64,000 nucleotides of DNA from Escherichia coli. Lineage in GTDB: Bacteria; Pseudomonadota; Gammaproteobacteria; Enterobacterales; Enterobacteriaceae. A program made the translations under genes and the position numbers. The DNA is taken from NCBI RefSeq assembly GCF_003334355.1, contig NZ_QOWP01000024.1; one strand, written 5' to 3'. Shown one piece after another: positions 59,541 to 64,000 of this stretch. Numbering within the stretch: position 1 is the first letter of the stretch; the number at the start of each line of letters is the position of its first letter. Below the pieces are notes generated by a model. The model had not been told where the DNA came from, ran no database searches, and saw only the letters and a program-made list of their open reading frames with translations.

Positions 59541-61226
59541 ATGATAACCATTCCCATTACGTTTTGTATGTTGATAGCAAAGTATCTCTGTCTGCTGAAG
59601 CCCTTTTGGCTGCGTAAGAATAATAAAACTTCAGTGTTGTTAATCATTATTATCCTCGCCATGATCCTTGGCGTGGTTAAAATTCAGGTCTGGTTAAACG
59701 ACTGGAATAATGATTTTTTCAATGCGCTAAGCCAGAAAGAAACCGATAAGCTTTGGCAGCTTGTCCTTTGGTTCCCTGCCCTGCTGGGGATCTTTGTATT
59801 AATATCCGTAAACAAAACATGGTTAATTAAACTACTGACTATTCGCTGGCGCGAATGGTTAACAGATTACTACCTTAATCGGTGGTTTGCAGATAAAAAC
59901 TACTACTTCACGCAGATCTACGGCGAGCATAAAAATACAGATAACCCTGACCAACGTATCGCTGAAGACATTCTCTTACTGATCAGCAAAACGCTCAGTC
60001 TTTCATTTGGCTTCATCCAGTCACTTAGCATGCTGATCACCTTTACCGTTATTCTTTGGGAAAGCGCGGGTACGCTCTCATTCACTGTTGGTGGAACAGA
60101 ATGGAATATCCAGGGGTATATGGTCTATACCGTCGTGCTCATTGTGATCGGTGGAACTTTATTTACCCATAAGGTGGGTAAACGTATTCGTCCGCTTAAT
60201 GTGGAAAAACAACGTAGCGAAGCGACATTTCGAACAAATCTTGTGCAGCATAATAAGCAGGCAGAACTGATTGCGCTAAGCAATGCTGAGTCTCTACAAC
60301 GCCAGGAGTTGAGCGACAATTTTCATACCATTAAAGAGAACTGGCATCGTTTAATGAATCGTCAGCGGTGGCTTGATTACTGGCAGAATATTTATTCGCG
60401 CTCGCTTAGCGTTCTTCCCTACTTTCTGTTATTGCCGCAGTTTATTAGCGGGCAGATCAATCTGGGCGGACTGATGAAATCGCGCCAGGCATTTATGCTG
60501 GTATCGAACAATTTAAGCTGGTTTATTTATAAATATGACGAACTTGCTGAACTGGCTGCGGTTATCGATCGCTTGTATGAGTTCCATCAACTCACTGAAC
60601 AGCGCCCTACGAATAAGCCTAAAAATTGCCAACATGCGGTACAAGTGGCTGATGCGAGTATTCGTACGCCTGATAATAAGATCATATTAGAGAACCTGAA
60701 CTTTCATGTTTCGCCAGGCAAATGGCTATTACTGAAAGGCTACTCTGGTGCGGGAAAAACCACACTGCTTAAAACATTATCCCACTGCTGGCCGTGGTTT
60801 AAAGGTGATATTTCTTCTCCTGCTGACAGTTGGTATGTGTCACAAACACCGTTAATCAAAACCGGCTTACTGAAAGAGATTATTTGTAAAGCACTTCCCC
60901 TGCCCGTAGACGATAAATCGTTGAGCGAAGTACTGCATCAGGTTGGTCTTGGGAAATTGGCTGCGCGTATTCATGACCACGATCGCTGGGGAGATATTCT
61001 TTCCAGCGGCGAAAAACAACGTATCGCCCTGGCACGATTAATTTTACGACGTCCGAAATGGATATTTCTTGACGAAACTACCTCTCATCTTGAGGAACAA
61101 GAGGCTATCCGCTTACTGCGTTTAGTGCGTGAAAAACTACCCACAAGCGGCGTCATTATGGTTACACATCAACCCGGTGTCTGGAACCTGGCCGATGATA
61201 TTTGTGACATTAGCGCGGTTTTATAA
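59541..61226 (+). CDS. yddA: ABC transporter, fused permease-ATPase (SbmA/BacA-like)
   Basis: 561-aa ORF with N-terminal TM helices and a C-terminal NBD (Walker A GYSGAGKTT; signature SSGEKQR). Confidence 0.85.
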   Translation: MITIPITFCMLIAKYLCLLKPFWLRKNNKTSVLLIIIILAMILGVVKIQVWLNDWNNDFFNALSQKETDKLWQLVLWFPALLGIFVLISVNKTWLIKLLTIRWREWLTDYYLNRWFADKNYYFTQIYGEHKNTDNPDQRIAEDILLLISKTLSLSFGFIQSLSMLITFTVILWESAGTLSFTVGGTEWNIQGYMVYTVVLIVIGGTLFTHKVGKRIRPLNVEKQRSEATFRTNLVQHNKQAELIALSNAESLQRQELSDNFHTIKENWHRLMNRQRWLDYWQNIYSRSLSVLPYFLLLPQFISGQINLGGLMKSRQAFMLVSNNLSWFIYKYDELAELAAVIDRLYEFHQLTEQRPTNKPKNCQHAVQVADASIRTPDNKIILENLNFHVSPGKWLLLKGYSGAGKTTLLKTLSHCWPWFKGDISSPADSWYVSQTPLIKTGLLKEIICKALPLPVDDKSLSEVLHQVGLGKLAARIHDHDRWGDILSSGEKQRIALARLILRRPKWIFLDETTSHLEEQEAIRLLRLVREKLPTSGVIMVTHQPGVWNLADDICDISAVL

Positions 61227-61263
61227 AAACAATAAAAGCCCTGCTGTACGGAGATATAAATAA

Positions 61264-63636
61264 ATGAAGCGAGTTCTTATTCCTGGCGTCATTTTATGTG
61301 GCGCTGATGTGGCGCAGGCCGTCGATGACAAAAACATGTACATGCATTTTTTTGAAGAGATGACGGTCTATGCTCCTGTCCCTGTACCCGTAAACGGCAA
61401 CACGCATTACACCAGTGAAAGCATCGAGCGTTTACCGACCGGGAATGGCAATATCAGCGATCTGCTGAGAACCAACCCTGCGGTACGCATGGATTCAACG
61501 CAAAGTACCTCGTTGAACCAGGGAGATATTCGCCCTGAGAAAATCTCTATTCACGGTGCGTCGCCCTACCAGAATGCCTATTTGATTGACGGTATTAGTG
61601 CAACTAATAACCTGAACCCAGCGAATGAGTCCGATGCCAGTAGTGCAACCAATATTAGCGGGATGTCACAGGGGTATTATCTTGATGTCAGCTTACTGGA
61701 CAATGTGACGCTTTATGACAGTTTTGTGCCGGTTGAATTTGGTCGCTTCAATGGCGGGGTAATTGATGCAAAGATCAAACGCTTCAACGCTGATGATAGC
61801 AAGGTGAAATTGGGTTATCGCACTACGCGTTCGGACTGGTTAACATCGCATATCGATGAGAATAACAAGAGCGCATTTAATCAAGGCTCTTCAGGAAGTA
61901 CTTATTACTCCCCAGATTTTAAAAAGAACTTTTATACCTTGTCGTTTAATCAGGAACTCGCTGATAACTTCGGCGTTACCGCCGGTTTATCGCGCCGCCA
62001 GTCTGATATCACCCGCGCGGATTATGTTTCGAATGACGGCATTGTCGCCGGTCGGGCACAGTATAAAAACGTTATCGATACTGCATTAAGCAAATTTACC
62101 TGGTTTGCCAGCGACCGCTTTACCCACGATTTAACCTTAAAATATACCGGCTCCAGCCGTGATTATAATACCAGCACCTTCCCGCAGTCTGATCGCGAAA
62201 TGGGTAATAAATCCTATGGTCTGGCATGGGATATGGATACGCAGCTCGCATGGGCCAAACTGCGTACCACCGTTGGTTGGGATCATATTAGTGATTATAC
62301 CCGTCACGATCATGACATCTGGTACACCGAACTTTCATGTACATATGGTGATATTACAGGGCGTTGCACCCGTGGCGGATTAGGACACATTTCCCAGGCT
62401 GTAGATAATTACACCTTCAAAACACGCCTGGACTGGCAAAAATTCGCCGTGGGTAATGTTTCGCATCAACCCTACTTCGGCGCGGAATACATCTATTCCG
62501 ATGCGTGGACTGAACGCCATAACCAGTCTGAATCCTATGTGATTAATGCTGCCGGAAAGAAAACTAACCATACCATTTACCATAAAGGTAAAGGCCGCCT
62601 GGGAATTGACAACTACACGCTGTATATGGCGGATCGCATTAGCTGGCGTAATGTGTCATTAATGCCCGGCGTGCGGTATGACTATGACAACTATCTGTCA
62701 AACCACAATATCTCCCCGCGCTTTATGACGGAATGGGATATTTTTGCTAATCAAACCTCAATGATTACAGCAGGTTATAACCGTTACTATGGCGGGAATA
62801 TTCTTGATATGGGATTACGTGATATCCGCAATAGCTGGACGGAATCGGTATCAGGTAATAAAACTCTGACGCGTTATCAGGATTTGAAAACGCCTTATAA
62901 CGATGAACTGGCAATGGGATTGCAGCAGAAAATCGGTAAGAACGTTATTGCGCGTGCAAACTATGTTTACCGTGAAGCGCATGATCAAATCAGCAAAAGC
63001 AGTCGTACCGACAGCGCGACTAAAACCACCATTACTGAATATAACAACGATGGCAAAACCAAAACGCATTCGTTCAGCCTCAGTTTTGAACTGGCCGAAC
63101 CCCTGCATATCCGCCAGGTAGATATTAACCCACAAATTGTCTTTAGCTATATCAAGAGCAAGGGCAACTTGTCGTTAAACAATGGTTATGAGGAGAGCAA
63201 TACCGGTGATAACCAGGTGGTTTATAACGGTAATCTGGTCTCTTACGATAGCGTTCCAGTGGCAGATTTTAATAACCCATTAAAGATCTCCTTAAACATG
63301 GATTTCACGCATCAACCGAGCGGGTTAGTGTGGGCGAATACGCTGGCCTGGCAAGAAGCGCGTAAAGCTCGCATTATCCTTGGTAAGACAAATGCGCAAT
63401 ACATCAGCGAATATTCAGATTACAAGCAGTATGTTGACGAAAAACTGGATAGCAGCCTGACCTGGGACACCCGCTTGTCCTGGACGCCACAATTTCTGAA
63501 ACAACAAAACCTGACGATCAGTGCCGATATTCTCAATGTACTGGATAGCAAAACCGCTGTTGATACAACGAACACCGGTGTGGCGACCTACGCCAGTGGC
63601 CGTACTTTCTGGCTTGATGTCAGCATGAAATTTTAA
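61264..63636 (+). CDS. yddB: TonB-dependent receptor-like outer-membrane protein
   Basis: 790-aa ORF with a signal peptide, a plug-like N-terminus and a C-terminal terminal Phe (...WLDVSMKF). Confidence 0.85.
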   Translation: MKRVLIPGVILCGADVAQAVDDKNMYMHFFEEMTVYAPVPVPVNGNTHYTSESIERLPTGNGNISDLLRTNPAVRMDSTQSTSLNQGDIRPEKISIHGASPYQNAYLIDGISATNNLNPANESDASSATNISGMSQGYYLDVSLLDNVTLYDSFVPVEFGRFNGGVIDAKIKRFNADDSKVKLGYRTTRSDWLTSHIDENNKSAFNQGSSGSTYYSPDFKKNFYTLSFNQELADNFGVTAGLSRRQSDITRADYVSNDGIVAGRAQYKNVIDTALSKFTWFASDRFTHDLTLKYTGSSRDYNTSTFPQSDREMGNKSYGLAWDMDTQLAWAKLRTTVGWDHISDYTRHDHDIWYTELSCTYGDITGRCTRGGLGHISQAVDNYTFKTRLDWQKFAVGNVSHQPYFGAEYIYSDAWTERHNQSESYVINAAGKKTNHTIYHKGKGRLGIDNYTLYMADRISWRNVSLMPGVRYDYDNYLSNHNISPRFMTEWDIFANQTSMITAGYNRYYGGNILDMGLRDIRNSWTESVSGNKTLTRYQDLKTPYNDELAMGLQQKIGKNVIARANYVYREAHDQISKSSRTDSATKTTITEYNNDGKTKTHSFSLSFELAEPLHIRQVDINPQIVFSYIKSKGNLSLNNGYEESNTGDNQVVYNGNLVSYDSVPVADFNNPLKISLNMDFTHQPSGLVWANTLAWQEARKARIILGKTNAQYISEYSDYKQYVDEKLDSSLTWDTRLSWTPQFLKQQNLTISADILNVLDSKTAVDTTNTGVATYASGRTFWLDVSMKF

Positions 63637-63653
63637 TAGTTCGGATTTTACTT

Positions 63654-63679
63654 AACCGGGTAAATTCGCCCGGTTTTCG
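63654..63679 (+). terminator. Hairpin between yddB and pqqL
   Basis: aaccggg-taaattcg-cccggtt followed by ttcgc. Confidence 0.35.
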
Positions 63680-63693
63680 CATGGAGATAATTA

Positions 63694-64000
63694 TGAGAAA
63701 CCTCTGTTTCTTACTGACGTTAGTGGCAACTCTGTTGCTCCCCGGGCGGCTGATTGCCGCCGCCTTACCGCAGGATGAAAAGTTAATTACCGGGCAACTG
63801 GACAATGGCTTGCGATATATGATTTATCCGCATGCTCATCCAAAGGATCAGGTAAATTTATGGCTGCAAATTCATACCGGTTCATTGCAGGAAGAAGACA
63901 ATGAGCGCGGCGTGGCTCATTTTGTAGAACATATGATGTTTAACGGCACAAAAACATGGCCGGGTAATAAAGTCATCGAAACATTTGAGTCAATGGGCCT
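63694..64000 (+). CDS. pqqL: M16-family zinc protease PqqL, 5' partial (continues beyond the window)
   Basis: Manual translation gives MRNLCFLLTLVATLLLPGRLIAAALPQDEK...GVAHFVEHMMFNGT, with a signal peptide and the inverted zinc motif HxxEH. There is no stop within the window, so it is absent from the ORF track. Confidence 0.8.

Follow-up and report, generated by a model that had tools for sequence, protein, structure and literature searches.

The closest described counterpart of the locus examined here is FusABCD, the ferredoxin uptake system of Pectobacterium, a single operon (fusB-A-C-D) with iron-dependent expression that encodes a TonB-dependent outer-membrane transporter (TBDT; FusA), a dedicated TonB (FusB), a periplasmic M16 protease (FusC) and a fused ABC transporter (FusD). 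FusA is also hijacked by ferredoxin-containing pectocins. Systems of this kind were defined as protease-associated import systems by Grinter et al. in 2019 (PMC6793856). Other known proteins resemble single components of the locus. Rv1819c of M. tuberculosis, BclA of Bradyrhizobium and YddA of B. cepacia have the architecture of E. coli YddA, an ABC_membrane_2/SbmA_BacA domain plus an ATPase, and their cargo comprises cobalamin, bleomycin-type drugs and antimicrobial or lasso peptides. The Fur-regulated siderophore receptors FepA, FhuA and CirA share with YddB a promoter Fur box, a TonB box, a plug and a C-terminal Phe. PqqF/PqqG and pitrilysin-type M16 proteases have the HxxEH motif and the M16/M16_C domain set in common with PqqL.

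The window, that is, the whole 64,000-nt stretch of DNA analyzed, is E. coli chromosome. Positions 59200-64000 are 100% identical to E. coli AR_0061, in which the region is annotated as yddA, yddB, and pqqL and in which the interval between ydeM and gadB holds only these three genes. They lie on the + strand in that order, separated by gaps of 37 and 56 nt (Table 1), and the domains found in their products agree with the preliminary description of a fused ABC transporter, a 790-aa TonB-dependent receptor, and an M16 protease, co-oriented with short gaps. The cluster is the previously published Fur-repressed yddA-yddB-pqqL operon, so that the finding is genuine and ordinary. Published work already covers the operon and its regulation by Fur, the co-transcription of the genes, the structures of two of the three proteins, and the part the operon plays in mouse infection, and the finding adds nothing new to this. 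The small additions made here, namely the likely yddA start codon, the Fur boxes in distant relatives, and the fact that a large clinical lineage has lost the operon, may aid construct design and the interpretation of virulence data. An 18-kb island of AR_0061 (encoding a 2021-aa ATPase and a DEAD-box helicase) was also considered and is absent from the window, as transferred coordinates gave 93 stop codons and the window ORFs do not contain it. An Rfam search of 58000-64000 at permissive thresholds gave a single, sub-threshold match, to isrK (20 vs 50 bits), outside the operon.

Table 1 Features of the yddA-yddB-pqqL locus, in window coordinates
Feature	Position	Strand	Description
Hairpin, 10 bp	59303-59330	+	Downstream of ydeM; -21.7 kcal/mol, z = -3.9, 0/200 shuffles fold as well
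Candidate sigma-70 promoter	59499-59528	+	-35 TTGCCA (59499-59504), 18-nt spacer, extended -10 TGgCACAAT (59520-59528)
Fur box GCTAATGATAACCATTCCC	59537-59555	+	15/19 match to GATAATGATAATCATTATC, 4 mismatches
yddA	59541-61226	+	561 aa; fused membrane-domain/ATPase ABC half-transporter, SbmA/BacA-like YddA clade (Pfam; PDB match 6TQE)
yddB	61264-63636	+	790 aa; FusA-like TonB-dependent outer-membrane transporter (PDB 6OFR; Plug domain)
Hairpin AACCGGG/CCCGGTT, then T-run	63655-63677	+	yddB-pqqL gap; -13.4 kcal/mol, z = -1.1, alone not significant
pqqL, 5' end	63693-64000	+	ATG at 63693, runs past the window end; signal peptide and HFVEH

Residues 29-790 of YddB are identical to PDB 6OFR, which was deposited as a "TonB-dependent outer membrane receptor". 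In a PDB search at E <= 1e-3, YddB matched only itself and FusA (4ZGV/9RHR; E 1.4e-79 for 4ZGV) and, by this sequence comparison, is nearer to FusA than to other TBDTs. A Plug domain (PF07715, E 1.3e-6) was detected at residues 48-162; the barrel is too divergent to have matched any Pfam barrel model, TonB_dep_Rec included, or any NCBIfam model. YddB carries a TonB-box-like EEMTVYA that aligns with ETMVVKA, DIIVVKA, and DIIIVHA of its relatives, and ends in Phe, as do all eight relatives. It was reported that YddB is ~24% identical to FusA and has a similarly large extracellular binding site (PMC6793856). YddB is partnered by a protease and by an ABC transporter of the SbmA-like kind, whereas FepA, FhuA, and CirA work with a periplasmic binding protein and a type II ABC importer.

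The window holds just 103 of the 927 pqqL codons, or one ninth of the gene, and these include the features named in the preliminary description, a signal-peptide-like N-terminus (MRNLCFLLTLVATLLLPGRLIAA) and the HFVEH zinc motif (HxxEH; residues 76-80, window 63918-63932). In the identical genome record, the full-length protein has one Peptidase_M16 and two M16_C domains (Pfam). Residues 23-927 are identical to PDB 6OFS (the PqqL crystal structures are 6OFS and 6OFT), and the crystallized chain starts at residue 23. FusC (6B03) is among the closest PDB matches (E 2.1e-58, aligned over residues 5-926). None of the three proteins reached a curated NCBIfam cutoff; PqqL is far below those of the PqqF equivalog (TIGR02110; 48.5 bits, cutoff 320) and of pitrilysin (33.4 bits, cutoff 765), and E. 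coli has no PQQ pathway and makes no PQQ (PMC3855560). The name pqqL comes from the complementation of Methylobacterium PQQ biosynthesis mutants (cited in PMC3855560). In the literature, PqqL is a periplasmic protein with demonstrated protease activity that leaves human and plant ferredoxins and globins uncleaved, and its peptide specificity is narrow (PMC6793856). The protease is therefore not "secreted" in the sense of being released from the cell, as had been suggested.

In YddA, a membrane domain of the ABC_membrane_2 (PF06472) and SbmA_BacA (PF05992) type (E 1.8e-43 and 2.3e-33) is fused to an ABC_tran ATPase domain (PF00005, E 2.8e-18) with a Walker A motif GYSGAGKT (residue 400), a signature LSSGE (487), and a Walker B motif WIFLDE (507). 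The best solved-structure match was 6TQE (E 2.3e-67, residues 35-552), while the weaker NCBIfam matches were mostly to exporters, CydDC and type I secretion ABC transporters among them. The true start of yddA is probably the ATG at 59568 (M10 of the annotated protein) rather than position 59541. Around the start, the differences from E. fergusonii are nearly all synonymous. One study labels the YddA family "of unknown function", names the cobalamin transporter Rv1819c as the closest structural homolog of YddA, and nests the peptide-transporting BclA proteins inside the YddA clade (PMC13316013). Rv1819c transports B12 (PMC3603451), and B. cepacia that has lost YddA is resistant to the lasso peptide ubonodin (bioRxiv 10.1101/2022.03.09.483586). 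As the studied members of this SbmA/BacA-like YddA/BclA/Rv1819c clade import, YddA is by analogy probably an importer, and the initial label "ABC exporter", which sits poorly with an uptake model, is probably wrong. It should be noted that Rv1819c, BclA, and B. cepacia YddA stand alone, whereas E. coli yddA shares its operon with TBDT and protease genes. In print, yddA has been described as a fusD homolog (PMC5095587).

A search of 59251-59540 for a Fur box had been proposed. Such a box does exist, but at the edge of this interval and mostly outside it (Table 1). It is the joint best 19-mer against the 19-bp consensus across the window, it is the published site GGGAATGGTTATCATTAG (PMC3855560) read on the opposite strand, and its core, CGCTAATGATAA, is invariant in E. 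fergusonii. At the stricter threshold of at most three mismatches, zero matches were found in the 64-kb window, with 0.03 expected by chance per 64 kb. A weaker Fur-like sequence (core GATAATCATT) is located at 59501-59519, and a Fur-like 15-mer with two mismatches to the 15-bp model (59638-59652), inside Ile codons of the first YddA membrane helix, may be a chance occurrence. A second Fur-like 19-mer at 47306, inside an ORF that is probably hipA (46649-48028), was also treated as chance.

The candidate yddA promoter scored 9/12 plus the TG in a scan whose hits were overall no commoner than in shuffled sequences; we call it because both hexamers are kept in E. fergusonii amid diverged flanks, not because of the scan. 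The hairpin downstream of ydeM probably marks the 3' end of ydeN-ydeM and hence the upstream boundary of the yddA unit; because no T-run follows it, a terminator role is one that we infer. A terminator scan, the hits of which were again no commoner than in shuffles, flagged no terminator-like site in either intergenic gap. The hairpin in the yddB-pqqL gap is a possible partial terminator or transcript-end stabilizer, and E. fergusonii has at the equivalent site another, longer stem (GCCGGGT...ACCCGGC) followed by TTTT.

Co-transcription and nutrient regulation, on which the preliminary description had made its reading depend, are both documented. RT-PCR over both gene junctions was positive in strain CFT073, which indicates read-through at the yddB-pqqL gap, and the operon transcripts rise in a fur mutant (PMC3855560). 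In K-12, Fur was bound upstream of the operon (PMC4676285). An iron chelator increased the amount of PqqL protein (PMC6793856), and there is further published support for iron control (PMC4145685, PMC10164565). In CFT073, a chelator alone left transcript levels unchanged, and expression was up >30-fold in urine (PMC3855560); induction in serum has been described too. The mutant screen that had been suggested is also answered in print, in two ways: yddB and pqqL mutants are less fit in mouse systemic infection (PMC3855560), but the deletion mutants grow normally in iron-limited LB, as does a yddB deletion in a strain without any iron-acquisition TBDT (PMC6793856).

The ABC transporter, TBDT, and M16 protease genes are adjacent in six of the seven relatives with readable flanking genes (L003, L005, L006, L007, L008, and L009), with YddB identities of 28-86%. 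The neighborhoods of the module are unrelated among these relatives, and three different gene orders occur. In the three that share the E. coli order (L003, L005, and L008), the sequence that best matches the Fur consensus within the entire locus is located 55-90 nt upstream of the yddA homolog, with three mismatches each. In L007, the module follows an ECF sigma/FecR pair and a TonB gene, as is typical of iron-uptake loci. A 70% relative (L010) has no intact yddA upstream, and its contig ends just past yddB. Of note, a more distant relative of YddB has a di-haem peroxidase as its partner in place of the protease, a pairing that points to redox-active, cofactor-bearing cargo.

Building on points established here or in print (the identity of the genes, the structures, co-transcription, regulation by Fur, the location and activity of PqqL, and linkage across distant bacteria), we consider it reasonably likely that the operon encodes a Fur-repressed protease-associated import system homologous to the Fus system, with YddB corresponding to FusA, PqqL (~920 aa) to FusC, and YddA to FusD. 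Iron scarcity would take Fur off its box just downstream of the -10, and the three genes would be expressed on one mRNA. YddB, powered by the housekeeping TonB-ExbBD through its TonB box, would import a specific small protein or large peptide over the outer membrane, probably a host-derived one bearing a metal or a cofactor. Periplasmic PqqL would then cut this cargo, and a YddA homodimer, exporter-like in fold yet a member of a clade that imports, would deliver the freed cofactor or peptide to the cytoplasm. What we infer here are the protein nature of the cargo, the action of PqqL on it, and both the direction and the substrate of transport by YddA. Both systems form a single operon with iron-dependent expression, and they differ in gene order (yddA-yddB-pqqL vs fusB-A-C-D) and in that no FusB is encoded between ydeM and gadB. 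Because PqqL does not cleave ferredoxins, the YddB/PqqL cargo would differ from that of Fus. Weighing against this reading are the lack of a FusB gene in the cluster, the ferredoxins and globins left uncleaved by PqqL and the normal growth of yddB and pqqL deletion mutants in iron-limited LB (PMC6793856), the unchanged CFT073 transcript levels with a chelator alone (PMC3855560), and the loss of the operon from many genomes. The nutrient or peptide acquisition reading of the preliminary description is thus supported; it is not a new idea, as it matches the published model, which is documented as a hypothesis (PMC6793856, PMC5095587). The identity of the YddB and YddA cargo would tell whether TonB-dependent piracy of whole proteins occurs in an animal commensal and pathogen.

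General scavenging of peptides or proteins with no special tie to metal cofactors, Fur control simply signaling host-like conditions, seems unlikely. It would suit the response of CFT073 to urine but not to a chelator alone (PMC3855560), the normal growth of the mutants under iron limitation (PMC6793856), and the peptides carried by YddA relatives; the Fur boxes that distant relatives keep upstream of the module, the ECF sigma/FecR and TonB genes in L007, the narrow specificity of PqqL (PMC6793856), and the hint of redox-active cargo given by the di-haem peroxidase all argue against it.

Of 5426 complete E. coli genomes, 726 (13%), O25b:H4 strains included, lack the operon through a deletion with one identical junction, and the operon is therefore dispensable for successful extraintestinal lineages. 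In other genomes, independent IS1, IS3, or IS5 insertions break yddA or yddB. It is conceivable, if improbable, that an undiscovered bacteriocin or phage enters through YddB, much as the pectocins exploit FusA, that selection by such a killer rather than mere disuse explains the recurrent loss of the operon, and that the natural cargo is a host or microbiota metalloprotein imported whole.

We regard it as very unlikely that the system works outward, with a peptide or small product exported by YddA into the periplasm, trimmed there by PqqL, and released across the outer membrane by YddB. The type IV exporter-type fold and mostly exporter-like weaker matches of YddA would fit, as would the processing of the PqqA peptide by PqqF-type M16 proteases, the origin of the pqqL name (PMC3855560), and reports that some TBDT-like proteins act in secretion (discussed in PMC6793856). 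However, the three-gene operon includes no precursor peptide or biosynthetic gene, PqqL falls well short of the PqqF model in a species that makes no PQQ (PMC3855560), the closest studied YddA relatives are importers, YddB has a large FusA-like extracellular binding site (PMC6793856), and conserved Fur control suits uptake.

Finally, that the E. coli operon is a decaying remnant without current function, or that the three genes are mere neighbors, as the deletions, the IS insertions, and the lack of an in vitro phenotype (PMC6793856) might suggest, is highly improbable given that the operon is intact and 95-100% identical in ~85% of genomes, that substitutions at the yddA start are nearly all synonymous relative to E. 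fergusonii, that mutation of yddB or pqqL lowers fitness in mice (PMC3855560), and that the linkage is kept despite gene rearrangement.

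The preliminary description placed a co-oriented cluster at the 3' end of the window, with genes for a fused ABC transporter, a 790-aa protein resembling a TonB-dependent transporter (TBDT) and an M16 protease set at short distances. This arrangement was confirmed, as all three genes lie on the plus strand, with gaps of 37 nt between yddA and yddB and of 56 nt between yddB and pqqL. Nucleotides 59200-64000 are 100% identical to E. coli AR_0061, as they are to many other genomes, and the matching AR_0061 genes are annotated as yddA, yddB, and pqqL, with ydeM upstream and gadB downstream. 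Pfam searches and motifs bore out the domain assignments. YddA combines an ABC_membrane_2/SbmA_BacA membrane domain with an ABC ATPase in which the Walker A, signature, and Walker B motifs are present; YddB contains a Plug domain, and its TonB-box-like EEMTVYA and C-terminal Phe are both kept in eight relatives. Full-length PqqL contains a Peptidase_M16 and two M16_C domains, with HFVEH at residues 76-80.

Coordinates of the yddA-yddB-pqqL cluster and of other features in the window
Feature	Position	Strand	Remark
yddA	59541-61226	+	561-aa ORF (ORF list)
yddB	61264-63636	+	790-aa ORF (ORF list)
pqqL 5' end	from ATG 63693, past the window end	+	103 of 927 codons inside the window
HFVEH motif of PqqL	63918-63932	+	
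Promoter	59499-59528		likely
Fur box	59537-59555		4 mismatches
yddA start	59568	+	probable true ATG
Hairpin	59303-59330		after ydeM; strong, z = -3.9
Hairpin and T-run	63655-63677		between yddB and pqqL; weak alone, z = -1.1
40-codon ORF	59216-59338	-	overlaps the ydeM 3' end and the hairpin after ydeM
Autotransporter ORF	40797-46217	+	intact, 1806 aa
ydeO-ydeN-ydeM-yddA-yddB-pqqL	54500-64000		G+C 34-47%

The cluster is an already published system. Crystal structures of these very proteins are in the PDB (6OFR for YddB; 6OFS and 6OFT for PqqL). Apart from its own entry, YddB matches only the ferredoxin receptor FusA in the PDB (4ZGV, E 1.4e-79), and the closest PDB matches of PqqL include FusC (6B03, 6B05, 6BRS; E about 1e-58). 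The operon has been described as a distant homolog of the ferredoxin uptake system of Pectobacterium (Grinter et al. 2019, PMC6793856), and yddA as a homolog of FusD (Grinter et al. 2016, PMC5095587). The preliminary reading of a nutrient or peptide acquisition system is thus supported and matches the published Fus-like uptake model. RT-PCR has shown that the operon genes are co-transcribed, and the operon is up-regulated in a fur mutant and induced >30-fold in urine, while yddB and pqqL mutants have reduced fitness in mouse systemic infection (Subashchandrabose et al. 2013, PMC3855560). Fur binds upstream of yddAB-pqqL, and a positive effect of RyhB has been reported (PMC4676285); serum induces the operon (PMC4145685), which belongs to a Fur iModulon (PMC10164565). 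PqqL is induced by both an iron chelator and urine and does not cleave ferredoxins or globins, and deletion of yddB or of pqqL leaves growth in iron-limited LB normal (PMC6793856). With these co-transcription, Fur, expression, and mutant data, each check proposed in the preliminary description had already been answered in print.

Two labels had to be changed: PqqL, described as secreted, was corrected to periplasmic, and YddA, described as an exporter, is probably an importer in E. coli. The YddA fold is of the exporter type; its studied relatives nevertheless import. Its membrane domain matches the SbmA/BacA family, and 6TQE is the solved structure that YddA matches best (E 2.3e-67). The closest structural homolog is the cobalamin transporter Rv1819c, and in a 2026 phylogeny the BclA proteins, which transport peptides, branch within the YddA clade and SbmA descends from an ancestor resembling YddA; the same paper still calls the YddA family one of unknown function (PMC13316013). 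In addition, loss of YddA in B. cepacia confers resistance to the lasso peptide ubonodin (bioRxiv 10.1101/2022.03.09.483586). These importing relatives fit an uptake operon.

YddB relatives at 28-86% identity were then placed in their contigs. A YddA-type ABC protein, a TBDT, and an M16 protease are adjacent in E. fergusonii (L009), Orbaceae (L003), and Muribacter muris (L006), as well as in loci L005, L007, and L008. These loci show three different gene orders and unrelated neighbors, and identity to the E. coli proteins co-varies across all three partners. In Oryzisolibacter, the TBDT is paired with a di-haem peroxidase instead of the M16 protease, a pairing also seen by Grinter 2019 (PMC6793856). 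The module relative in L007 (5465-15306; 30% identity) is preceded by a divergent TonB gene and an ECF sigma/FecR pair. An STN signaling domain in its TBDT suggests that this version can sense its substrate by surface signaling, which is absent from the E. coli operon.

A strict Fur consensus search allowing up to 3 mismatches found no site in the 64-kb window. A full scan of the window found the Fur box GCTAATGATAACCATTCCC, one of only two equally good sites, which is the Fur sequence already published and known to overlap the annotated yddA start (PMC3855560). The preliminary description had suggested searching 59251-59540 for a Fur box; the box exists, but it starts 4 nt before the annotated ATG and therefore lies mostly outside that interval. 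Across each full 14-18 kb locus of L003, L005, and L008, the best Fur match is a site with 3 mismatches located 55-90 nt upstream of the yddA homolog; by chance, 0.03 such matches would be expected per 64 kb. In L007, the best Fur site falls between the TonB gene and the ECF sigma/FecR pair, both of which precede the cluster. These sites suggest that iron control of the module is conserved in distant relatives.

The annotation probably places the yddA start 27 nt upstream of the true one, as judged from three features of the sequence. First, the conserved KPFW motif is at residues 20-23 of annotated E. coli YddA and at about residues 12-15 in most relatives. Second, the E. fergusonii codons from the equivalent of the annotated ATG read MIIVTI-stop (in-frame TAG), and yddA is called there from the second ATG (window 59541-59568 compared with L009:4282-4309). 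Third, by inspection, every substitution between the two species in the 27-nt extension changes the amino acid, whereas 9 of 10 substitutions from the second ATG onward are synonymous. E. fergusonii has kept the -35 TTGCCA, the extended -10 TGgCACAAT, and the Fur core. The likely layout is thus a promoter, a Fur box directly after the -10, and translation from the second ATG, which would put the Fur box in the leader rather than on the start codon. Among E. coli alleles the extension remains an open frame, one of them carrying a Cys-to-Arg change in it, so translation from the annotated ATG may still occur.

The region is intact in 4589 of 5426 complete E. coli genomes, and one common deletion junction is found in 726 (13%). 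In the deletion, the end of ydeM (window ~59258) runs directly into the final 918 nt of pqqL, as seen in a carrier locus (L002:7001-7974), so that yddA, yddB, and two thirds of pqqL are lost. In LF82 and NRG 857C the junction occurs as a two-piece variant, and further genomes have IS1, IS3, or IS5 inserted in yddA or yddB. Deletion carriers include an O25b:H4 strain, JJ1887, ZH063, and ZH193, known as ST131; a highly successful bloodstream lineage can thus do without the operon, which tempers the virulence-factor reading based on CFT073. A search of the available literature for yddA and yddB together with ST131 found no paper.

The hairpin between yddB and pqqL has a counterpart at the same place in E. 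fergusonii, where the stem differs in sequence. The element could act as a partial terminator or attenuator, or could stabilize the transcript or its end; read-through of this gap is documented (PMC3855560). The short minus-strand ORF near ydeM is named 'protein YneP' in some RefSeq records and 'hypothetical protein' in others.

Elsewhere in the window, the long ORF is annotated 'ECSE_1600 family autotransporter' in matching genomes, and its locus is a pseudogene in K-12. From ydeO to pqqL, the G+C content is lower than the E. coli mean (about 51%). Salmonella and Citrobacter are without the yddB family (PMC6793856), and this absence and the low G+C are consistent with horizontal acquisition. 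After hipBA, AR_0061 has an additional island of roughly 18 kb (L011 30760-48600) that is missing from the window and contains IS3, a partial integrase, a 2021-aa ATP-binding protein, and a 1020-aa DEAD/DEAH helicase.
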